Shown here: in pieces, positions 42,281-63,708 of the stretch
Numbering within the stretch: the first letter of the stretch is position 1
Layout of the letters: every line of letters starts with the position of its first letter
IMG/VR virus record: IMGVR_UViG_3300017991_000096
Location: 15,246 to 79,245 of that record
Source: a virus
Length of the DNA: 64,000 nucleotides
Strand: one strand, 5' to 3'
Position numbers and translations under genes: made by a program
Notes under the pieces: model-generated
What the model was told of the DNA's origin: nothing
The model's input: only the letters and a program-made list of their open reading frames with translations
Databases searched by the model: none

Positions 42281-42355
42281 TGGGGTAAGCGTTACCATCG
42301 AGTTGAGCGAGGCGCAGAGGGAGCTACTGCGCCTCGCCTTGAAGGAGGTTCAGCC

Positions 42356-42904
42356 ATGACGGATGCGAACTACACCCTGATCTTCACCCGCCGGTTTGAG
42401 GCGGCGCATCGGTTTCTCATGGCCGACGCCCCGCGCTGCCGCAGCATCCACGGGCACACATGGTCGATCACTGCCAGGATCCACCACCGTCTCGAAGTGC
42501 AGCCGCCCCTGTACCCGTCCTCCATGGTGGCCGAGTTCTCCAAGACGAAGAAGGCATGGCACCGTTGGGTGGATCAACACCTCGACCACACGCTCATGCT
42601 CAACGAATCGGACCCGCTCATCTGGTGGTTCCAATCCAACGCGCCCTACCAGCGCCTCGTGACCTGCCCAGGTGACCCGACGACTGAGCTACTGGCTGCG
42701 CTGCTGCTCTGCAAGGTCAACGCCTTCCTGAGAGCCAGCGACGAGGACGGTCTGATGTGCCACGAGCTCCAGATCCAAGAGACGCCCACGAACGCGGTGA
42801 GCATCATCTGCCCCTGGGTTCCTGCGGGCCTCGACAAGACCGACGCCGTCTGGTGGAACCGCGCCGACGACAGCACGCACGATCTCGCCAAGTCTGATGA
42901 CTGA
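42356..42904 (+). CDS. queD: 6-carboxytetrahydropterin synthase
   Basis: FEAAHR...C..IHGHTW, LDH, PTTE, ETP. Confidence 0.9.
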
Positions 42905-43646
42905 CCTACGCATCGTCAAAGACGGTCTGTTTGAGACTGTCCAGGGAGAGGGGTTCCTCGCTGGCACCCCCTCCCTGTTCCTTCGCACTGCCGGCTGCAA
43001 CCTTCGATGCGCGTGGTGTGACACGCCCGAGAGCCTGCCCGACTACGATCTGCGGCTCCGGGTCTTTCAGCCCAAGCCCACGTTCAACGCCATCGAGGTG
43101 GATACTGAGATGCTGAGCCTCGCCATCGAGGCATCCATCGGCAGGGGTTTCCACCACGTCGTCGTGACCGGCGGAGAGCCGACACTACAGCAGGGTGCTC
43201 TGCTGCGTCTGTTCGGGCCCCTGCGGAAGCACGGGCACATGCACGTCACCATGGAGACGAACTGCGAGGTGCCTCCGAGCCCCGAGCTACGTCAGGTCGT
43301 GGACCTTGCCAGCCTCAGCCCGAAGCTGCATCGGTGGAAAACCACACAAGGAGCCGAGCGCATCGTCAGCGCCTACGAGGAGTGGGCTGCCATCCAGCAC
43401 GTACAACTCAAGGTCGTCGCCGGCAGCATCGAGGAGGTTCGCAACGCCGTCGAACTGATCCGCGCACTCCGTAAGGTTGGGCGTATCAAGCCCATCTGGG
43501 CCGCTGTCCAGCTAGAGGACTCATGGGTCGAGAAGGGCGCGTTCTTCGACGCGGACGAAGAGGTCGTGCGCAGCATATCCAGCTACCTCGGACGGCACAA
43601 CATCCGTCTGGTCGTCCAACAGCACAAGGTGATGAGGATTCTCTGA
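42897..43646 (+). CDS. queE: 7-carboxy-7-deazaguanine synthase (radical SAM)
   Basis: [37 protein letters not shown]. Confidence 0.92.
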
Positions 43647-44290
43647 TGGCACGTACAGGTAGACCACCCATCCCGCCCGAGGAGAAGGCGCAGCGCAAGA
43701 TCGAGGAGTACATGGGCAAGGTCATCGACCTGCTCATGGAACTGGGCAACGTGAGCGAGGAGGAGCGCGAGTTCCTCGACCTGACCGAGACGCCTCGCCG
43801 CGTGGCGAAGATGTGGGTCCGAGAGACGCTCAGCTACCCGGATCAGCCAGAGGTCCACCTGACCGAGATGGACAAGGAAGGCGACGTGGTGTGCCTTGGC
43901 CCCATCGGCTTCGCCTCGACGTGCGCGCACCATCTCATGCCCTTCACGGGTCACGTCTGGATCGCCTACCTGGCCGACACGAAGTTGCTCGGGCTATCGA
44001 AGTTCACTCGCATCGTCAAGGCCCATAGCAAGCGGCTGCACCTGCAAGAGAAGTTGACCAGAGACGTTCTGGACACGCTGGTGGAGCATCTGGAGCCTCG
44101 CGCCATGCTCGTGGTCATGCGGGCTGGGCACGGCTGCGTGGCTTGTCGGGGCGTAGAGGATGCGACCCAGCGCACGGTGACGGCTGCCGTCCACCTGCCC
44201 GACAGTGATATAGTGAACAACGGCCGCCTGACCGAAGAACTGTACCGAGTCGTGGGCATGGCGGGCGGCCCGTCTGTCGCTTCTTACTAA
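43646..44290 (+). CDS. folE: GTP cyclohydrolase I
   Basis: TPRRVAKMW, STCAHHLMPF.G, GLSK..RIV, LQEKLT, H.C...RGV. Confidence 0.92.
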   Translation: MARTGRPPIPPEEKAQRKIEEYMGKVIDLLMELGNVSEEEREFLDLTETPRRVAKMWVRETLSYPDQPEVHLTEMDKEGDVVCLGPIGFASTCAHHLMPFTGHVWIAYLADTKLLGLSKFTRIVKAHSKRLHLQEKLTRDVLDTLVEHLEPRAMLVVMRAGHGCVACRGVEDATQRTVTAAVHLPDSDIVNNGRLTEELYRVVGMAGGPSVASY

Positions 44291-49135: not shown

Positions 49136-49402
49136 ATGGACGGAACTACGAAAGTAACCGAACTGAATCTCAACCGACCTGACCCCGAGGTCATCGCTTC
49201 GCTCAAGCAAGCCTTGGCCGATGCGGAGAGCGGGAGACTGCAAGGGTTCGTTCTTGTCGGGTCACTCCTTGGGGGCAGATCGCTCTCTCTCCGCGAGGGC
49301 TCGATCAACAGGCCCGAGGTCGTGGCCTTCGCTGCCCGCATCCAGCACGAGGCTATGATGGAGTGGACTGAGGACGCCGTTGACGAGGAGGAGGACGACT
49401 AG
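49136..49402 (+). CDS. hypothetical protein
   Basis: GGGAG RBS; VIASLKQALADAESGRLQGFVLVG pattern seen in small phage proteins. Confidence 0.55.
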   Translation: MDGTTKVTELNLNRPDPEVIASLKQALADAESGRLQGFVLVGSLLGGRSLSLREGSINRPEVVAFAARIQHEAMMEWTEDAVDEEEDD

Positions 49403-50115
49403 TGCCCGTCACTCTGGAGTTCGCGCCCTTCATGGGGCCCGAGCCCAACGACCTGTCAGACGTGGAGCGGCTCGGTCCCTCGATCTTCCGCTTCCCTGTC
49501 TGGACCCCGGTGGCCTGCGAGGGCTTCATCGACGTGCTGGAGTCTCCGATGCACCGTGGCTGCTGGGCTACGCCCGAGACGGCGGAGAAGGTGGCGGCGC
49601 TGCCCGAGGTCAAGGCAGCGTTCCCCAGCGACTTCGACATCGTGGAGCTAATCCAACGCAGGAAGGTGCGGGAGTTTCCGCTCTACACCATCGAAGGCTT
49701 CAAGGAGGCGTGGGAGTCCTACTCCCTCGACCACATCATCCCCATCCTCGACAGGCTATGGGGTCGTAACCATACCAAGGTCATCGCGCCGTTCGTGTTC
49801 TGCTACCAGCGGCGGAAGGGCCTCAAGTCGCATCTTAGTGACCACTACGATGCGTTCAACACGTTCGTCCTGCCGCTGTCGAGTCCCATGGACTACGAAG
49901 GTGGCGGCACCTACATCCCAGACCTCGACCTGACCATCGAGGACGAACAGGGTCACGCGCATGTGTTCCCTGGCCTCACTCACTACGTCGCTCCCGGTCG
50001 TGACGCCCTCGAAGATGAGGACGACCAGGAGGTCACTCTCCACCCTGAACTGTGGCACCGTACCCATGCACTCAAGCGTGGTAAGCGGTACTGCCTGATC
50101 GGATTCTACGCATGA
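49402..50115 (+). CDS. 2OG-Fe(II) oxygenase, PLOD/P4Hc-like
   Basis: IFRFPVWTP..C, FVFCY, HYD, DYEGGGT, FPG.TH, H......GKRY.LIGF (HxD...H triad and 2OG-binding Arg). Confidence 0.75.
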   Translation: MPVTLEFAPFMGPEPNDLSDVERLGPSIFRFPVWTPVACEGFIDVLESPMHRGCWATPETAEKVAALPEVKAAFPSDFDIVELIQRRKVREFPLYTIEGFKEAWESYSLDHIIPILDRLWGRNHTKVIAPFVFCYQRRKGLKSHLSDHYDAFNTFVLPLSSPMDYEGGGTYIPDLDLTIEDEQGHAHVFPGLTHYVAPGRDALEDEDDQEVTLHPELWHRTHALKRGKRYCLIGFYA

Positions 50116-50774
50116 TTCTCAACAAACGAAGCTCATGGTCCTACTTCGCACCTGGCGTCTTCCAGCGGAAGGTGATGACGCCCAAGCAGTGCGACAACCT
50201 CCTCGACTACTGCATCAGCAACGCGAACGGCTGGATCGGTCCTGAGAACGCGGAGGACATCCACGGATGCCCGAGGGTCTTGTCGGGCTATCCTGACTAC
50301 TTCTCGCCCGAGGACGTGGAGTGGGCCATTCGCAACTACAAGAGGTTCCGCGAGTTCCCCACGGAGAACATGGCGCCCCAGCTACAGCTAGCCATGCTGA
50401 GGTTCGCTGAGGAACTCATGCCCAGTGTTGCTGCCATCCATGGTATCGACCTGCGCCGGCCCCTCGATCCGTTCGTCGCCTGCTATGAGGCGCGAGAGGG
50501 TCACAACGCTTTCCTGTCGCCCCACGTAGACAAGCAACGGGCGGCTGTGGTCGTGCAACTGAACAGCCCCAGGGACTACCAGGGCGGCGGCACCCGGTAC
50601 ACGAATCTCGGCGTGACCGCGCCAGAGAAGGTCGGCATGGGCGTGACGCACACGGGGGCCAAGGCATACGAGGCCGACCCGGAGGAGGCCGAGGAGTTGT
50701 ACCCCCACCTTGTCCACGAGGCGCTGGAGGTCACCGAGGGCGCTCGGTACACCCTCTGCCTGTTCTACCTGTAG
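50112..50774 (+). CDS. 2OG-Fe(II) oxygenase, PLOD/P4Hc-like (paralogue of the upstream gene)
   Basis: FVACY, LSPHVD, DYQGGGTRY, HEALEVTEGARY.L..F. Confidence 0.8.
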   Translation: MILNKRSSWSYFAPGVFQRKVMTPKQCDNLLDYCISNANGWIGPENAEDIHGCPRVLSGYPDYFSPEDVEWAIRNYKRFREFPTENMAPQLQLAMLRFAEELMPSVAAIHGIDLRRPLDPFVACYEAREGHNAFLSPHVDKQRAAVVVQLNSPRDYQGGGTRYTNLGVTAPEKVGMGVTHTGAKAYEADPEEAEELYPHLVHEALEVTEGARYTLCLFYL

Positions 50775-50784
50775 GGGGCCGACG

Positions 50785-52971
50785 ATGATTCTGTACCTCG
50801 CAGGTGGCGAGACGTGGTGGCGATACTTCGACCGCTACGGCATCCGAAACGTGCTGCTGTCGTATCACTACCTGCGAGGTCAGACGGACTTCGCCGAGAT
50901 GGTGGCGTGGATGGAGCGGAGCAAGGCGGAGAAGCAGCCCCGAAGGTTCTTCCTCGACTCCGGTGCGTTCACCTACATGCACGGCGGCCACGACACGCTC
51001 GAAGATCTGAACGAGTACGCCGACGAGTACATCCGCTTCCTGAACACGGACCCAGCCGTCAAGCTGTTCGACGTGGTGGCTGAACTCGACGTGTACCAGC
51101 AGATCGGGGACGAGTCTGAGGACGACGTGTATCGAAGGGTCCAACGTCACCAGGAGAAGATCTACGAGGCGGTAGGTGACAAGATCCTGCCTACCTACCA
51201 GACGGACTGGCTGACGCTCAAGGACTGGGAGAAGGTCTGCGCTGATCCTCGTTTCAAGCAGGTGGGCATCGGCTCGTCGGGCGAGAGCGGCAGCGCTCAG
51301 TTCATCTCGCTGCACAAGAAGCTGATCGCCATCGCCCACAGGCATGGAAAGGTCATCCATGGTTTCGGCCAGACGCGGCTGCAAACCGACATGAAGTACC
51401 TCCGCAACTACGACTCCGTGGACTCGACCACCTGGCTGCGCGCGGATAAGTACGGAGGTACGTTCATCTACCAGAACGGGCACCTGCGCATCCTCAACCA
51501 CGAGCAGAAAGAGCGGCGCGCATGGTTCAAGGGTTACTTCAAGCGCATCGGCCTCGACCCTGAGCGCATCCTAGGAACCCACAAGGACCACGCCCCGCAC
51601 TGCGACGGTCCCAACAGCCAAACCAAGGACTGCGAAGCCTGCAAGGATCAGTTGGAGGAGCTTCGAGCGTCGAGCCTCATCGCTTGGCGGGAGCTTGCCA
51701 AGAAGTTCGAGCGCACTGGTCAACGCCTCGTACAGCATCGGTCCACGCGCACGCTTGACGTTCAACAAACCCAAGGAGTCACCATGACACCAGGACCCAA
51801 GCTGGGTCGAAAGAAGGGCTGGAAGGGCCCACCCGGCACCAAACCCACCTACGATGACTTTGGGGGCAAGAAGTGCCCTCACTACCGGCGGCGCCCAAGA
51901 GAGGTGGCTCGAAACCTCAACTGCTCAGCCTGCCACAACCTCCCGATCTGCCAGGAAGTAGAACGCCATGAGTACCAAGCCCTCCTCGATGACCACACCG
52001 CAACTACTCACCCGGAGATGGGTGCTCCTGATCCACGGCAAGATGGCGACGGAGGAGTTCCGTTCGCTGACGCTGGAACTACTCAAGCGGCAGGCACCGG
52101 AACCTGGAGCGCGGGAACAAGTGATGGCGGAGAGACGAGCACGCCAGATAGCAGCACTGGCGGAGGCCAAGGCGAGAGCAACCGAAGCGCGCGAGAAGGG
52201 TCGGCTGTAGCTCCCGATACCACTACGGGAAGCACTACCCCAGAGGGGGAGGGGGGCGGGAGGTCCTTGGATTCTCGTGAATCCCCCCTAGAAGACTCCA
52301 ACTCCCCACTACAGTCTCAGGATTCTCGTGAATCCTCCCCAAATCCCCCCAATCCTCCACCAGTTTCTCCGAACGGTGCCCCACCTCCGCATAGTCCTCA
52401 GTCATCCCTTGTCCCCACGTCAGCCCTACGGCGTAGAGACAACAGGGAGCTACTGACAACAGGGGGTCTGAACCTGGGTGCCTGGAGACGGGATATCCCA
52501 CGCAACCACTGCGACGTGTGCAACCTGGCGGATGAGTGCCCCAAGTACCAACCCGCATCCGTCTGCGCCTACAACGAGGTCTTCGACCAGTTCGACACGC
52601 GCAACAGCGACGACGTGATGGCGCTACAGCAGGCCCTCGTGGAAGTGGATAAGGACCGGACCATGGCGGCGATTCTCCAAGAGAGGTTGACCACGGGCGG
52701 GCAGATCGATCCCCGCGTGACGCAGCAGATGAACAGCTTTCAGAACCGCATACAGGTGCTTGACGAGATGATGCAGGCACGGAACGCACCACGACCAAGC
52801 GGATTCAACGTCCAGGTCCAGGTCCCTAGTCCTAGCGCACCAGATGGGCGCCCAGGAGTCCTCTCGATGCTCTTTGGCTCAGCCCCGGCTCAGTCCCATG
52901 GGGAACCCACGGAGAAAGAGGAGGAGGGTCAAGGTGCGGTCATCGACACCACTGCAACAGGGCCAGAGTGA
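50785..52971 (+). CDS. TGT/DpdA-like guanine transglycosylase with long C-terminal extension
   Basis: N-terminal ~310 aa: LLSYHY, FFLDSGAFT, ELD, IHGFG, DSVDSTTW; then a low-complexity linker, a C-x2-C-x5-C-x8-C cluster and a helical domain. Confidence 0.75.
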   Translation: MILYLAGGETWWRYFDRYGIRNVLLSYHYLRGQTDFAEMVAWMERSKAEKQPRRFFLDSGAFTYMHGGHDTLEDLNEYADEYIRFLNTDPAVKLFDVVAELDVYQQIGDESEDDVYRRVQRHQEKIYEAVGDKILPTYQTDWLTLKDWEKVCADPRFKQVGIGSSGESGSAQFISLHKKLIAIAHRHGKVIHGFGQTRLQTDMKYLRNYDSVDSTTWLRADKYGGTFIYQNGHLRILNHEQKERRAWFKGYFKRIGLDPERILGTHKDHAPHCDGPNSQTKDCEACKDQLEELRASSLIAWRELAKKFERTGQRLVQHRSTRTLDVQQTQGVTMTPGPKLGRKKGWKGPPGTKPTYDDFGGKKCPHYRRRPREVARNLNCSACHNLPICQEVERHEYQALLDDHTATTHPEMGAPDPRQDGDGGVPFADAGTTQAAGTGTWSAGTSDGGETSTPDSSTGGGQGESNRSAREGSAVAPDTTTGSTTPEGEGGGRSLDSRESPLEDSNSPLQSQDSRESSPNPPNPPPVSPNGAPPPHSPQSSLVPTSALRRRDNRELLTTGGLNLGAWRRDIPRNHCDVCNLADECPKYQPASVCAYNEVFDQFDTRNSDDVMALQQALVEVDKDRTMAAILQERLTTGGQIDPRVTQQMNSFQNRIQVLDEMMQARNAPRPSGFNVQVQVPSPSAPDGRPGVLSMLFGSAPAQSHGEPTEKEEEGQGAVIDTTATGPE
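51968..52210 (+). CDS. nested out-of-frame ORF inside the DpdA-like gene
   Basis: 80 aa, protein-like and helical, exactly where the host frame is low-complexity G/S/T. Confidence 0.35.
   Translation: MSTKPSSMTTPQLLTRRWVLLIHGKMATEEFRSLTLELLKRQAPEPGAREQVMAERRARQIAALAEAKARATEAREKGRL
52269..52335. repeat. two copies of quasi-palindrome GGATTC-TCGT-GAATCC, 51 bp apart
   Basis: Copies at 52269-52284 and 52320-52335. Confidence 0.85.
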
Positions 52972-53039
52972 CCCCCACCCCTTTAGTGCGATGCCTTCGA
53001 GCGAGGGGACGGCTACCAAACTTCCCAGAGTGACCCCCA
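52963..53039. repeat. 15-bp direct repeat CCAGAGTGACCCCCA
   Basis: Copies at 52963-52977 and 53025-53039. Confidence 0.8.
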
Positions 53040-53120
53040 GAGTATAGGGGGGAAATCCCCTGTACCTACAACGTACATACACAACACAAGCAGTTTGAGA
53101 GGGAAAGAAGGAGAGACATC

Positions 53121-53897
53121 ATGCCCATCATCGTCAGTGTGAAGAACATCGTGGTAGACGAGGGACCGCCGGCTGTTGTGCGCTACCAGCTAGAGGTGGC
53201 GGACACCGTGAGCGACGCGGAGTACCAGACGGACATCGACATCACGCCGGCCGTGCCTTTGGCGTTCCCGAACTACGGGGTGGCGATCTTCGAGGTGGAG
53301 GAGGGCGTGGACTGGGATCCGTTCGACGCGGCGTTGTTGGCTGCGGGTTGGGAGAACCTGAACACGGGGGAGCCGATTGGGGGGTTCATCGAGCGTGTTT
53401 ACGCGGGCCCGTACACGACGGGTTTCTTCAACACGACCGTGACCATCGAGGAGGCGGAAACTGGGGCTACGCTGGTGCTGACTGGCTCTGTCGCTGCGAC
53501 GACGCCCCAAGCTGCGTTGCTCGTGACGCGGGAGAGGTTGTGTTCGGGGCTGTTCACGGCTTCCGCGTCTCCACCCGAGCCGGTGCTTCCCGTGACGATC
53601 ACCGAGTTCGTACCTCCGGTCATCACCGACCCCATCGACGGGCCGCCTGCGACCGTGTCCGTGCAGGGGTCGGGCTTCACTTCGATCTCGGGCGTCGCGG
53701 AGATTCGGTTTGAAGCGGAGGACCCTGATGGCGGGCTCATCACTGCTACCTGGCCGCTCACGGTGCTGGACGACAGCAACGCTGAGTTCGACTGGGCCGA
53801 TCCGTGGCCTGACGCCATCTGGAACGTGACGGTGCTGGAGGACTCTGTCCCCGTGTCGTCTGTGCTGGTCGGCGGCTTCCAAACCCAGCTATCCTAG
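53121..53897 (+). CDS. acidic Ig/IPT-like protein (possible virion decoration)
   Basis: AAGGAG RBS; PPVIT....PPATVSVQGSGF IPT/TIG-like motif. Confidence 0.55.
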   Translation: MPIIVSVKNIVVDEGPPAVVRYQLEVADTVSDAEYQTDIDITPAVPLAFPNYGVAIFEVEEGVDWDPFDAALLAAGWENLNTGEPIGGFIERVYAGPYTTGFFNTTVTIEEAETGATLVLTGSVAATTPQAALLVTRERLCSGLFTASASPPEPVLPVTITEFVPPVITDPIDGPPATVSVQGSGFTSISGVAEIRFEAEDPDGGLITATWPLTVLDDSNAEFDWADPWPDAIWNVTVLEDSVPVSSVLVGGFQTQLS

Positions 53898-53957
53898 CCA
53901 TACCTACGGCATACATACGAGACAGATTCGGTGGGGGCCTGATAGGCTTTGCCTACC

Positions 53958-54593
53958 ATGCGCAACCATGCCGAGTTCTGTGTCTACGACAACTTTTTCA
54001 CCGCCGCGGAGTGCAACCGTCTCGTCAGATGGGCACTCCGCGACGGGTTCCGTGAACCGGAGGACATCACGGGCTATCGAAGCCCTGGGTATCCCATGCC
54101 AGAGCTACGCGAGCGCGTGGCTGATGCTTTCGGTTTGTACCCCGACCCGAATACGTGGCTCGACGATCCCGAGGAGATGCACAACAACGGGAACGGGGTC
54201 GTCTACTTCGGGCTCTCGGAGGGGCCGAAGGCTGAGGTGTGTGGCGTTCACTGGGACGAGCCCGTGGAGCGCTACACCATGCTGGTGTACCTCGTGGACG
54301 GGCCTGCTGACGCGGGCACGGGGTGGTATCGGCACAAGCCAACCGGGCTCGTGCGCGCGCCGATCTCCGCGGACGCGCGGCGGCTCAAGACGACGGTGGA
54401 GAGCCTTCGGGAACAGGTCTACCGCGACTCCCAGAAGCCGGGACAGTGGGACGTGCTCGCCACCGCTGGGCTCGTGAAGGGCCGCGCCGTCCTGTACCCG
54501 AGTGACATCCTGCATCGCGCCTGCCAGCACTTCGGTGACCGCCCGGAAAACGGCAGGCTCTACTACACCCTGCGGTTCTACAAGGAGGACTGA
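53958..54593 (+). CDS. 2OG-Fe(II) oxygenase-like protein (DUF6445-like)
   Basis: VYDNFF, VHWD, LVYL, GT.WYRHK.TG, RAVLYPS..LH.....FG.....GRL. Confidence 0.7.
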   Translation: MRNHAEFCVYDNFFTAAECNRLVRWALRDGFREPEDITGYRSPGYPMPELRERVADAFGLYPDPNTWLDDPEEMHNNGNGVVYFGLSEGPKAEVCGVHWDEPVERYTMLVYLVDGPADAGTGWYRHKPTGLVRAPISADARRLKTTVESLREQVYRDSQKPGQWDVLATAGLVKGRAVLYPSDILHRACQHFGDRPENGRLYYTLRFYKED

Positions 54594-54596
54594 GAC

Positions 54597-54734
54597 GTGA
54601 CGGTTGACGAAATCAAGAGGGCGATCTCCAAGCTGGAGCGCGCTAACCGTAAGTTTGGCTACGACCAAGCAAGGGCTATGAAGTTGAAGAAGCTCAAGCG
54701 CGCGCTAGAGGCCCGCGAGAAGGAAGGTGCATGA
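54597..54734 (+). CDS. 45-aa hypothetical protein
   Basis: AGGAGG RBS with GTG start; ATGA-coupled to the next gene. Confidence 0.45.
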   Translation: MTVDEIKRAISKLERANRKFGYDQARAMKLKKLKRALEAREKEGA

Positions 54735-55132
54735 TGACCAAGGACCAGTTGAACGATCTGCTGGGCGATCTCGACGTGGAGATGATCGCAGAATGGGTGA
54801 ACGAACAAGACTGTGGGTACATGCTCATGGACTGGACCCGCAAAGACGAGGAGATGAGCGCGATGCAAGAGGGTGACAGGCTCAGCCTCATCAAGTTCGG
54901 CTGTGCGCTCCACATCATGCAGGGGCTACTCGCTCTGCGCCTCGCAGAAGTGACCGGGAGGGAGGATATGTCCGTGTGGGAGTCTGGGGAGTGGCTGATC
55001 CTCCTGGCCGGCTATGTCGGGGCTCGCGCGTCGCAGGACCCCGAGTTTGAACGCGAGGCGCTCAACGTGGCCCAAGACGTGCTCATGCTCTCGGCCAGTG
55101 GCATCCAGACCACGAGAGAGCCGCAGGCGTAG
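54731..55132 (+). CDS. hypothetical protein
   Basis: Coupled start; 133 aa. Confidence 0.55.
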   Translation: MMTKDQLNDLLGDLDVEMIAEWVNEQDCGYMLMDWTRKDEEMSAMQEGDRLSLIKFGCALHIMQGLLALRLAEVTGREDMSVWESGEWLILLAGYVGARASQDPEFEREALNVAQDVLMLSASGIQTTREPQA

Positions 55133-55134
55133 GG

Positions 55135-55773
55135 ATGGGTAGCGCTCCAGCGACGCAAGCCAACCTGACACCCCTTCCAGTGGTCAGACAGGGGCTCGTC
55201 TGGTGGCAGAAACAACGGATGTACCCGGACCCGCGGCGCATCCTCGACCCTGCCGCGGGCTCTGGTGCGTTCGGCGTCGTGCTGCGCGAGCTATTCCCGC
55301 GCGCGCACATCACCGCGATGGAAGCGAGGGTGGAGGAGCACGGGCATCTCCGCTCGATCTACGATGAGGTGCTGGGCTCGTTTCCCGAAAACCTGCCCGA
55401 CGACGCGCCGCCCTTCCGCCCCTACGATCTCGTGGTGACGAACCCGCCGTTCGTGCTGTGGGAGGACTACGTGGAGTTCAGCCTCGACTACGTCACGCAG
55501 GGAGGTGACGTGCTCATGCTCGGACTGAACGACTGGGGCCAGCGGAACATGAGCACGGGGTACGATTTCTTCCGCACGTACACCCCGGTGTACCAGGCTC
55601 GGATCTCTGGATCGCTCGGTTTCCGTGGACCTGGCGAGAGCGCGGACACGAGGTGCTACTCGTGGTGGCTGTGGAGGGAGGGGAGCAGCATCAGCCCGAC
55701 GCAGTGGCTCACGACGACCCTGCCACCGCTCGACAGCGACGGCAGGAGGTGGACGACCCCACCGGGGCGGTGA
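55135..55773 (+). CDS. amino-methyltransferase, probable N6-adenine DNA MTase
   Basis: Motif I ILDPAAGSGAF precedes motif IV DLVVTNPPF. Confidence 0.8.
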   Translation: MGSAPATQANLTPLPVVRQGLVWWQKQRMYPDPRRILDPAAGSGAFGVVLRELFPRAHITAMEARVEEHGHLRSIYDEVLGSFPENLPDDAPPFRPYDLVVTNPPFVLWEDYVEFSLDYVTQGGDVLMLGLNDWGQRNMSTGYDFFRTYTPVYQARISGSLGFRGPGESADTRCYSWWLWREGSSISPTQWLTTTLPPLDSDGRRWTTPPGR

Positions 55774-57808: not shown

Positions 57809-59287
57809 ATGCGCATCAACACGAACATCATCGCCCTCACCGCCAACCGCTTCCACGGGTCGGGTATCGACGCCGACTGGACAGTCACGGAAACCGATAG
57901 CCTCACCTGGGAGGTCAGCAACGATTTTCACTGCATGGACGAGAACGGGTACTACTGCGGGTGGCTGCCCTTCACCATCATCCTCGACTCCGAGGGTCGC
58001 GTGGACGAGGTCGAGATCGCTGAGGAGGATGAGGAAACCTTCGGTGACGACATCGACGTGGAGGGGCTCAAGGAGTACCTGGCCGATGGGTGGAACGCCA
58101 TGCTCGACTCCACGGTCGAGGGCCTCTCGGACGACCCCGACAGTTGCGACATCTGGGAGGACGACGACATCACGGTCGAGACTGACCCCGATTTCGACAC
58201 CTGCTACGTCAAGGCGGTCGATCGTCTGCCCACGCCCGAGCCCGACTTCGAGTCCACGGAGGAGTGCTTGCAAGCCATGCTCACAGAGAACACCGGGCGG
58301 CACATGCTCGACAGCGGCGGCGCCTACGGTCGCCACTGGGAGCGCAACCAGGGGGTTGACTTCTCCAAGACCCCCACGGGGCACATCGAGTTCCACCGTC
58401 CCGACGACTGGTACGTGATCGTGTCCATCTATCACTTCCTGGTCAACAACCTCGACTACTGCGGGGAGCTTGACGCCGAGTTCCAGCGCTTCGCCACGAG
58501 CACCGAGTACGCAGACGAGCCGTGGGGCTCATGCGTCCACGACTGGGTCTGGCGCCGCTTCGGTCACAAGGAGGACGCCGCCACTGGGCCCTACGGTGAG
58601 AACCCCATGACCAAGGACGATCCGACGTGGGGCGGGTACACGTACAACGAGGAGAACTCCTTGAGTCAGGATTTCATCTGGGCTCAATGGACCGTGGACG
58701 GTGAGACTTTCATCGCCATCCAGATCCACGGTGGCTGCGACGCTCGCGGTGGCTTCACCCGCCCCCGCATCTTCTCGGACAGCGGCAACAGCGAACTGGG
58801 GTGGCTCGACTGGAACCGGGTCGGCATGGGCTGCGACAAGTGCCGCTGCCACGCCTACGGCGACGGGGGCGGCTGGGAGTGGTACGACGAGGACGGGCAC
58901 AGCCTCGACGTGACGGTGGCCGGCGACGGTGAGGACGATGACCGGGATGAGGAGGACAACGCCCCCGACCCCGCCGACGCGCCGCGTCTCAAGGGCAAGA
59001 AGTGCGCCGTGATCTTCGACGCGGTCACCGAACGCTGCACGGAGGAGGTCTACACGATCGAGCGCGTGTACCCTGCCCGTGGCGGCCTGTGGGTTGACCT
59101 GGACCGCCTCGTGGAGACTGGGGTCCACACGGCGTCGATGACCGTGACGCTGGATCAGGTCCGACTCCTCGAAGGTGAACTCAGCCAGGACGAGGACGGG
59201 CACGGCATCGCCCGGTGGGACGATGAGGCCAAGACCCTCCGGTGCCCGTGCTGCGAGAGCGGGCACATGAGCGCTGGCCCCTTCTAG
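57809..59287 (+). CDS. acidic hypothetical phage protein
   Basis: 492 aa; HMLDSGGAYGRHWERNQ, TYNEENSLSQ, IQIHGGCDARGGFTRP; terminal CPCC. Confidence 0.7.
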   Translation: MRINTNIIALTANRFHGSGIDADWTVTETDSLTWEVSNDFHCMDENGYYCGWLPFTIILDSEGRVDEVEIAEEDEETFGDDIDVEGLKEYLADGWNAMLDSTVEGLSDDPDSCDIWEDDDITVETDPDFDTCYVKAVDRLPTPEPDFESTEECLQAMLTENTGRHMLDSGGAYGRHWERNQGVDFSKTPTGHIEFHRPDDWYVIVSIYHFLVNNLDYCGELDAEFQRFATSTEYADEPWGSCVHDWVWRRFGHKEDAATGPYGENPMTKDDPTWGGYTYNEENSLSQDFIWAQWTVDGETFIAIQIHGGCDARGGFTRPRIFSDSGNSELGWLDWNRVGMGCDKCRCHAYGDGGGWEWYDEDGHSLDVTVAGDGEDDDRDEEDNAPDPADAPRLKGKKCAVIFDAVTERCTEEVYTIERVYPARGGLWVDLDRLVETGVHTASMTVTLDQVRLLEGELSQDEDGHGIARWDDEAKTLRCPCCESGHMSAGPF

Positions 59288-62703: not shown

Positions 62704-63055
62704 GCGAGCCGAGACGCGCCAGCAGGACGCGGCAGTCACCCGTGGCATCGAGCGGGTGGCTGCCATCTTCCCTCACGACACCGTGAGCATCGGTCCCCTC
62801 GCGGACCTTGCCAACGCCTACGCGACCATCGAGCGCAACCGGACGGCGGACACTGACCCCGACACGGGGATGGTGGCGCCGCAACCCATGACCCAGAGCG
62901 TCCTCCAGGGTGGAGCCGTTGACGGAAGCGTCGCGGACCTCCCGAGGCGCCCTGGGTCTTTTCGTCTCGACTTCGCCCACCGATGCAACGGTGACGAGCC
63001 CCTCTACGAGTGGAACGACAAGGACCAGAGATGGTATCCAAGGGAGCAAAGCTAG
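62645..63055 (+). CDS. hypothetical protein
   Basis: 136 aa; overlaps both neighbours. Confidence 0.5.
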   Translation: MKKPLTPRHWNELVESTRFERAETRQQDAAVTRGIERVAAIFPHDTVSIGPLADLANAYATIERNRTADTDPDTGMVAPQPMTQSVLQGGAVDGSVADLPRRPGSFRLDFAHRCNGDEPLYEWNDKDQRWYPREQS

Positions 63056-63708
63056 TATGCAGAGATGCCCTCGTCCTGCTGAGCGCAGGGCTCGACTCCA
63101 CGGTGACCCTTGCACTCGCGGATGCGATGGGCTTTCGCTGTGAGACGGTGACCTTCGACTACGGGCAAGCCAACCGCGTCGAGCTTGAGGTCGCTCGGCA
63201 CAACGCCGAGCGCTACGGCAGCCGGAAGCACCACGAGGTGACGCTGCCGACTGAGGCTTTCGCAGGGAAGGGCGCGGCAGGTGACGACGCTCGCAAGGGA
63301 TCGGGCTACGTCCCACTACGCAACGTGGTGTTCATGTCGTATGCCGCCGCGCTCGCAGAGGCTCACACCCTCCGGTATCTGTTCGTCGGCATCGTCTCGC
63401 TCGACGGGAGACGGCTTGGGCCTAAAGGTTTCAACGGCTTTGGCGATACGAGCTTAGAGTTCCTCACCGCGTTCTCTGACGTGCTCGAAGCAACCTGCAC
63501 GCACCCCACATCGGTGATGGCTCCGCTCGCGGATACGACCAAAGCCGGTGTCATCAAGCTGGCGCGGAAGCTGGGCGTGGACCCGGAGTTGACGATGTCG
63601 TGCTACCAGCCGGACGGCTACACCCCTTGCGGGGTCTGCCTCCCGTGCCAACAGCGAAAGTGGGCGTTTCGAGATCTCAAACGCGAGGAGCTAGAAGGTC
63701 TTGGATAG
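63031..63708 (+). CDS. queC: QueC-like 7-cyano-7-deazaguanine synthase (divergent)
   Basis: VLLSAGLDS (PP-loop), TFDYGQ...EL, YVPLRN.VF, APL...KA.VI, T.SCY, CG.C.PC..R. Confidence 0.85.
   Translation: MVSKGAKLVCRDALVLLSAGLDSTVTLALADAMGFRCETVTFDYGQANRVELEVARHNAERYGSRKHHEVTLPTEAFAGKGAAGDDARKGSGYVPLRNVVFMSYAAALAEAHTLRYLFVGIVSLDGRRLGPKGFNGFGDTSLEFLTAFSDVLEATCTHPTSVMAPLADTTKAGVIKLARKLGVDPELTMSCYQPDGYTPCGVCLPCQQRKWAFRDLKREELEGLG

Follow-up and report, generated by a model that had tools for sequence, protein, structure and literature searches.

A DpdA-type guanine transglycosylase fused to a C-terminal module with kinship to presumed small terminases

The fusion gene and its contig

DpdA proteins are enzymes of the tRNA-guanine transglycosylase (TGT) fold that exchange guanine in double-stranded DNA for preQ0. 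The protein described here (P0001) joins a domain of this type, through a long linker, to a C-terminal module resembling small terminases (terS). It is encoded by a single open reading frame (ORF) of 728 aa, free of stops, at 50785..52971 on the + strand of the window, the 64,000-nucleotide stretch of IMG/VR record IMGVR_UViG_3300017991_000096 that was analysed. The window comprises bases 15246-79245 of one 79,245-bp virus contig with 63% G+C, on which every gene lies on the + strand. CheckV puts the completeness of the contig at 90%. The gene order begins inside a portal-like gene, continues through head, sheath, tube and baseplate genes to replication genes and the region of the fusion gene, and closes with an open frame rich in K, G and A. 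The gene for the large terminase (terL) is absent, as the contig ends before its expected position.

The ATG at 50785 agrees with the N-termini of homologues. Residues D58, S59, G60, D102, H192, G193, D213, S214, the four Cys of the C-terminal module, R606, R625, E633 and G639 are invariant in seven homologues with 20-45% identity. The order of DpdA domain, linker and module recurs in P0002, P0003, P0005, P0010, P0011 and P0013, in gp021 of the cultured phage BCD7, and at loci L005 and L029. Standard family collections are silent on the protein: Pfam-A gives no family for the whole sequence at E <= 1, NCBIfam gives none, and a megablast of 20 kb against phage records returns no match.

A frameshift or misassembly could in principle have fused two adjacent genes, and the two modules are indeed separate genes in the G001, G002, G004, G005, L007 and L009 records. 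The same DNA is present in sediment and seawater metagenomes. Single contigs from two runs cover 50600-53200 with 0 differences and 0 gaps, and pieces from two further runs, belonging to other studies, are identical over the parts of the ORF that they cover. Contigs from four runs in four studies are thus identical and free of indels, and two of them span the entire ORF; the comparison was made between contigs only, so that a hole at 52166-52339 in run X7 carries no meaning. Because independent contigs are identical across the ORF, the fusion is not an assembly error. Dozens of independent fused homologues, BCD7 gp021 among them, also speak against an artefact, which is very improbable.

The DpdA domain

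The DpdA-type DNA guanine transglycosylase domain occupies residues 1-329 (50785..51771, + strand). Residues 1-245 match phrog_887, annotated queuine tRNA-ribosyltransferase, at E 8.8e-39. The AF2 model, built with 41 homologues, is a beta/alpha barrel (mean predicted local distance difference test, pLDDT, 92; predicted template modelling score, pTM, 0.87) followed by a long helix at residues 284-329. In a Foldseek search of the PDB with this model the top 19 matches are all tRNA-guanine or archaeosine transglycosylases (E 5e-6 to 5e-5, probability 1.00, TM about 0.5), the best solved folds being the mouse, human, archaeal and Zymomonas tRNA-guanine transglycosylases. The relation is visible at the level of structure and phage protein families: Pfam TGT does not detect the domain, and a sequence search of the PDB with the family profile gives no match for it. 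A preliminary description, made from the sequence without database searches, had proposed a TGT/DpdA barrel at the N-terminus, and family, model and fold matches all bear this out. The domain is confidently a TGT-type barrel, as modelled, and is DpdA-like.

The motifs on which that proposal rested lie where it placed them: DSGAF at residues 58-62 (50956-50970, + strand), HGFG at 192-195 (51358-51369, + strand) and DSVDS at 210-214 (51412-51426, + strand). D58, D102 and D213/S214 vary little or not at all and may include the counterparts of the catalytic Asp pair of TGTs. An H-x2-H-C-x9-C-x2-C cluster at residues 269-286 (51589..51642, + strand) is a possible Zn site; of the homologues, only the closest two, P0002 and P0003, retain it, and it is missing from P0005, P0010, P0011 and P0013. 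By fold, family and context the domain looks like an active DpdA whose substrate is probably DNA. The TGT barrel, the invariant Asp, Ser and His motifs and the association with preQ0 genes are shared with tRNA-guanine transglycosylases and stand-alone DpdA proteins, whereas the presumed DNA substrate and the additional oligomerising module set the fusion apart from them. In the close DpdA homologue P0004 (753 aa) the DpdA domain is interrupted by intein and LAGLIDADG domains (PF14528, PF14890).

The C-terminal module

The module spans residues of about 565-700 and is built of a Cys4 knuckle, a two-helix hairpin, a short strand and a conserved tail. The knuckle, C-x2-C-x5-CP-x7-C, lies at residues 576-594 (52510..52566, + strand), and its four Cys show little or no variation across 58-112 homologues; the cluster had been read in the preliminary description as C-x2-C-x5-C-x8-C, and this reading is correct, the residues being C576-x2-C579-x5-C585-x8-C594. 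Two long helices at residues 608-637 and 643-667 (52606..52785, + strand) form the hairpin and correspond to H64-93 and H99-123 of the AF2 module model. The strand FNVQVQV follows at residues 674-680 (52804-52824, + strand) and the tail motif GVLSMLFG at 691-698 (52855-52878, + strand), both as first described; the family consensus of the tail is GILSxLFG. In the model the knuckle and a hairpin with pLDDT above 90 are followed by a poorly ordered tail, which has a short helix over GVLSMLFG.

A search of 1.84 billion representative sequences with the module alone yields 300 proteins at E <= 1e-3, 82 of them at <= 1e-10. It is C-terminal in every listed protein, in sizes from 86 to 1,152 aa, the shortest being probably fragments. 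A simple phmmer search recognizes a DpdA domain in about a quarter of the fetched module proteins, and a family hidden Markov model (HMM) recognizes one in at least 55 of the pooled module proteins and locus ORFs. The remaining module proteins fall in no Pfam family, and their N-termini are K-rich and disordered; among 112 apparently DpdA-free module proteins, Pfam yields a single match, to DUF1804. The module is a widespread, unnamed domain that is always C-terminal.

Relatives of the module occur among the proteins of actinophages. The module matches phrog_6902, named terminase small subunit, at E 4.5e-5, over profile positions 297-388 of 469 only. By tblastn it matches Orf1 of Tsukamurella phages TIN3/TIN4 (E 9e-6), and hhalign aligns it with TIN4 Orf1 at a probability of 97.2% (E 2.9e-11) over 120 columns, covering TIN4 residues 306-430. 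Nothing is aligned in the N-terminal 300 aa of TIN4 Orf1, so that the relation is to the C-terminal part of phrog_6902 and phrog_16015 and not to their full length. The Orf1 family, of roughly 480 aa, is matched in 117 records of Gordonia, Tsukamurella and Rhodococcus phages, and in most listed rows the match extends into the annotated terminase gene. Read gene by gene, TIN4 and Eggsie have the Orf1-type protein overlapping the start of terL, with the portal gene next; the rightward structural operon of Eggsie begins with gp9, which overlaps terL gp10, and portal gp11 comes next. No annotated Que or DpdA gene is met in Eggsie when it is read in the same way. Since Eggsie carries the module without them, the module is not a DpdA accessory as such.

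These presumed small terminases of siphophages (phrog_6902, phrog_16015; TIN4 Orf1, Eggsie gp9) share the Cys4 knuckle, the two helices and the VQ-strand with the fusion protein. Their N-terminal region, about 300 aa long, is unrelated and is not a DpdA; they also have a 5-residue insert in the knuckle, no GILSxLFG tail, and a gene that overlaps terL. By the alignments, the protein in the terS slot has a C-terminal core homologous to the module, and the two may share a role. Other routes give fainter leads. A search of BFVD returns mostly uncharacterised homologues and a weak match to a protein labelled terS in Gordonia phage Jumbo (E 0.013). In a protein atlas all scores of the module fall below 0.9; T5_Terminase_small, at 0.84, is no more than a lead.

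Fused and split relatives

All eight of the closest viral DpdA loci carry the module, either fused to DpdA (L005, L029) or encoded on its own at most about 5 kb downstream of dpdA (L003, L004, L006-L009). None of the remaining 72 remoter DpdA loci that were fetched has it. Exactly one module gene is present in each of 10 genomes searched whole. In the DpdA tree the split forms are nested among the fused ones, with at least three changes between the fused and unfused states. The fused rows of this tree were partly gathered with the module as query, and fused and split frequencies therefore mean little. Split-form proteins have K-rich disordered N-termini only. A search for the module by a degenerate DNA pattern returned one contig, and a narrower module alignment returned three viral and 12 short metagenome loci, with no terL in their flanks.

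The nearest cultured relative of the fusion protein is BCD7 gp021 (YP_007005872, 757 aa), annotated as queuine tRNA-ribosyltransferase. It has the same architecture of DpdA domain, linker and Cys4-hairpin-GILSRLF, and its gene comes last in a FolE/QueD/QueE/QueC cluster. The overall gene order of this myovirus is also that of the contig, and none of its genes is annotated as terS. It differs in several respects: gp021 is only 25-28% identical to the fusion protein, BCD7 is a low-GC Bacillus phage, and its Que genes are contiguous, whereas QueC lies by the terL position here. In Supplementary Data 1 of Hutinet et al. 2019 (PMC6884629), BCD7 gp021 is entered in the DpdA column beside the FolE, QueD, QueE and QueC of this phage.

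The preQ0 genes and the terL region

The contig carries all four preQ0 genes together with the DpdA gene. QueD lies at 42281-42904 (phrog_2389, E 2e-27), QueE at 42801-43646 (phrog_2076, E 2.1e-34) and FolE, a GTP cyclohydrolase (phrog_2197), at 43523-44290, where it was placed by tblastn with BCD7 FolE (E 1.3e-21). QueC, at 63010-63708 (phrog_1550, E 4.2e-41), is the last complete gene before the end of the contig; all four are on the + strand. No QueF was found on the contig. Because the four pathway genes are present and QueF was not found, dPreQ0 is the DNA product to be expected from the gene content.

QueC stands about 19 kb away from QueD, QueE and FolE, where relatives have their last gene before terL, and it is placed in the same way in G002, G004 and G007. 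In G004, QueF (PDB 4F8B, E 3.9e-25; L088:4830-5258, - strand) is found 8 nt upstream of terL and is preceded by QueC. In G002 a QueF domain and terL form one uninterrupted ORF of 809 aa (L089:6588-9017), again preceded by QueC, on a single metagenomic contig; a true QueF-terL fusion is possible from this reading frame. Homologues of the window's QueC stand immediately before QueF-terL in G002 and G004 and, as a QueC-like gene, 636 nt ahead of terL in G007. The G007 gene comes after a 107-aa ORF, and in G003 a QueC-like paralogue likewise lies close upstream of terL.

The fusion gene itself contains the only terS-like sequence recognized on the contig. About 90 contig ORFs compared with PHROGs gave no terS family beyond the match of the fusion module, and a search of five genomes with Terminase_2 and Terminase_4, two Pfam terS families, was negative; PF11053 also gave no match, a result made uninformative by a control that matched nowhere. 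The preliminary description had advised a check for another terS. None was recognised in the contig or in the related genomes searched; the contig stops before terL, and a second terS may lie beyond its end.

A possible role in packaging

The reading preferred here, to which not quite an even chance is given, is that BCD7-like myoviruses use the fusion protein as their small terminase or as a component of it, and that the protein exchanges bases on DNA engaged for packaging. Its starting points are the kinship with the terS-slot proteins and the predicted behaviour of the hairpin; the single module gene per genome, its fusion or close linkage to dpdA, the Que genes near terL and the lack of another recognised terS also speak for it. 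Co-folding of four copies of the module gives a self-association score of 0.72, while the best of three controls scores 0.00; contact agreement is at least 67% and partner pLDDT at least 62. Of the 30 proteins whose solved structures are pairs of one chain, 20 attain this mark, as does one of the 23 solved as single chains; the run used its own alignment and four copies, unlike the calibration, so that these counts hold only roughly. Predicted contacts run along both helices of the hairpin, and one copy meets two neighbours. Self-association of the module is thus predicted, and the lateral packing of the modelled hairpins is as expected for a ring or arc. Multimer prediction had been proposed as a check on the C-terminal domain, and in the models a long helical hairpin indeed packs side by side with its own copies.

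The mechanism would proceed as follows. (i) Lateral packing of the hairpins would give an oligomer, probably a ring like those of small terminases. (ii) The oligomer would display several DpdA domains, on flexible linkers of 230 aa, around the DNA that it binds. (iii) The GILSxLFG tail would dock on a partner, most plausibly the large terminase. (iv) The FolE, QueD, QueE and QueC of the phage would supply preQ0 to DpdA. (v) Base exchange would then act on DNA engaged for packaging.

A number of observations weigh against this reading. Foldseek finds no match for the module in the PDB at E <= 0.001; the check proposed for the C-terminal domain has thus brought no solved relative, and it has singled out no unrelated fold either. 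VIA-align returns many unrelated hairpins at Z 7.6-8.8, among which the T4-type small terminase gp16 of phage 44RR (3txs_A) is tied (Z 7.7, root-mean-square deviation 3.5, 77 residues). This protein (PDB 3TXS) likewise uses a long helical hairpin as its oligomerisation core, but it has no detectable sequence relation to the module and no Cys4 knuckle, and its match does not rise above those of unrelated hairpins (top Z 8.8). The modelled fold is compatible with a terS core, and the match is non-diagnostic. The terS name of the actinophage proteins is positional, and many records call them hypothetical. Small terminases are so diverse that negative profile searches carry little weight.

The position of the gene belongs to the same set of objections. 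The fusion gene is not adjacent to terL, whose expected place is about 10.8 kb further downstream, and in relatives terL is found 4.7 to about 30 kb downstream of the module gene, in the same direction of transcription. Of the usual hallmarks of a small terminase, the N-terminal helix-turn-helix is replaced in the fusion by the TGT barrel. A place beside terL is occupied by the actinophage homologues; here the slot before terL is held by QueC and a K-rich ORF. Part of the packaging region lies outside the contig, which opens within the portal gene and breaks off short of terL. Another protein could be the real terS. Judged by its sequence, one candidate is BCD7 gp105 (L085:29510-29833, - strand), with a Zn ribbon and a K-rich tail, which stands directly before terL. 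The other is the basic ORF at the end of the window (63810..64000, + strand), open at its 3' end and rich in K, G and A with a KG/KA repeat, a rival candidate for a DNA-binding packaging protein. The small-terminase likeness put forward in the preliminary description is upheld as regards the hairpin and the kinship with phrog_6902 and TIN4 Orf1, but its suggested link to packaging is not matched by a gene adjoining terL.

In a second explanation, the main rival, the module only oligomerises and holds DNA. It would make DpdA multimeric, for instance as a scanning ring or arc that increases the enzyme's local concentration after replication, and would form no part of the packaging motor; the actinophage terS would merely share an ancient assembly module. 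The predicted self-association fits such a scaffold. In every examined myovirus relative the module travels with dpdA and not with terL, and this too favours the scaffold. So does the tail, which also weighs against the packaging reading, as the GILSxLFG motif is missing from the actinophage terS-slot proteins, which keep a VQIN strand. The K-rich disordered N-terminus of the split forms could bind DNA non-specifically, and the main DpdA papers treat modification as post-replicative, with packaging unmentioned. A scaffold leaves unexplained both the lack of a recognisable terS in these genomes and the Que genes that abut terL. In split genomes, moreover, the module is a separate protein and would therefore have its own function or, hypothetically, a non-covalent link to DpdA. 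This explanation is quite plausible, if on balance somewhat doubtful.

The tail allows a further alternative. GILSxLFG is short, conserved and hydrophobic and follows a poorly ordered stretch, as is typical of docking peptides. It could bind a partner other than terL, such as a sliding clamp or another component of the replisome or capsid, and so recruit DpdA to replicating DNA or to the particle. The L-S-x-L-F pattern is loosely like that of clamp-binding peptides. The tail does not exactly fit the QL[SD]LF consensus, no clamp was identified in the contig, where two candidate ORFs are without a PDB match, and the homologous actinophage proteins occupy the terS slot. Recruitment of this kind is unlikely.

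The packaging reading can be extended to the genes around terL. The 7-deazaguanine machinery would then be built into the packaging machine: DpdA would serve as a DNA-engaging arm of the terS oligomer, QueC and QueF would be expressed with terL (QueF being fused to it in one relative), and exchange would take place on the concatemer during its selection and feeding into the capsid. This wider proposal is speculative and rather improbable. If true, it would mean a DNA modification coupled to packaging instead of one carried out by a free enzyme.

DpdA enzymes are already known, and BCD7, whose protein has this architecture, already figures among the listed DpdA carriers. The C-terminal module and its kinship with a presumed terS do not figure in the two main DpdA papers, which are without terminase, packaging or a C-terminal extension. 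A full-text search of the literature for DpdA or deazaguanine with terminase returned only genome descriptions and no paper linking them. Should the module couple DpdA to the packaging motor or to an oligomeric ring that handles DNA, a mechanism for efficient and selective modification of the phage's own genome would be at hand. If the preferred reading is true, the missing small terminase of a sizeable myovirus group would be identified. The unnamed domain, with 300 representative clusters, is at present annotated by pipelines as queuine tRNA-ribosyltransferase or as hypothetical. The idea is directly testable because BCD7 is cultured.

The linker and a possible internal start

The linker between the two modules is of low complexity, rich in G, P, S and T, and occupies residues 330-560 (51772..52464, + strand). 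Its presence had been noted from the start with an estimate of some 250 aa; it measures about 230. Confidence in the model of the DpdA domain drops from about 95 to 53-62 over residues 320-345, at the start of the linker. A second Cys cluster, C364-x15-C380-x2-C383-x5-C389 (51874-51951, + strand), is common to P0002 and P0003. This cluster (CPHY...C-x2-C-x5-C) resembles a permuted copy of the knuckle of the module, and weak additional matches to the module HMM occur in the linkers of L005, BCD7 and L003.

A Shine-Dalgarno-like AAGGAG (51773-51778) is followed after 5 nt by the in-frame ATG of M334 (51784-51786), the whole element (51773..51786, + strand) lying at the end of the DpdA domain. 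A 395-aa gene call in the protein collection (P0015) begins exactly at M334. An internal start at this codon is possible and would yield a DpdA-free, 395-aa protein bearing the module, like those of the split relatives. In the packaging model such a start would add DpdA-free subunits to the same oligomer. The linker also contains a 16-nt near-palindrome, GGATTCTCGTGAATCC, which occurs twice, 51 nt apart (52269-52369), and encodes a repeated DSRES.

Neighbouring genes

As a candidate for terL, a 492-aa ORF at 57809-59284 was discarded because its PDB matches are GOLD-domain-like and it has no terminase family. It belongs to phrog_11344, of unassigned function, and its weak PDB sequence match is to the GOLD domains of ACBD3/GCP60 (E 1.4e-4). 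Closer to the fusion gene, two tandem ORFs with weak likeness to 2-oxoglutarate-Fe(II) (2OG-Fe(II)) oxygenases lie directly upstream (49384-50771). A DUF6445 protein and a methyltransferase-like ORF are encoded downstream (53946-55770). To judge from their sequences, these oxygenase-like, DUF6445 and methyltransferase-like neighbours could take part in further base modification.

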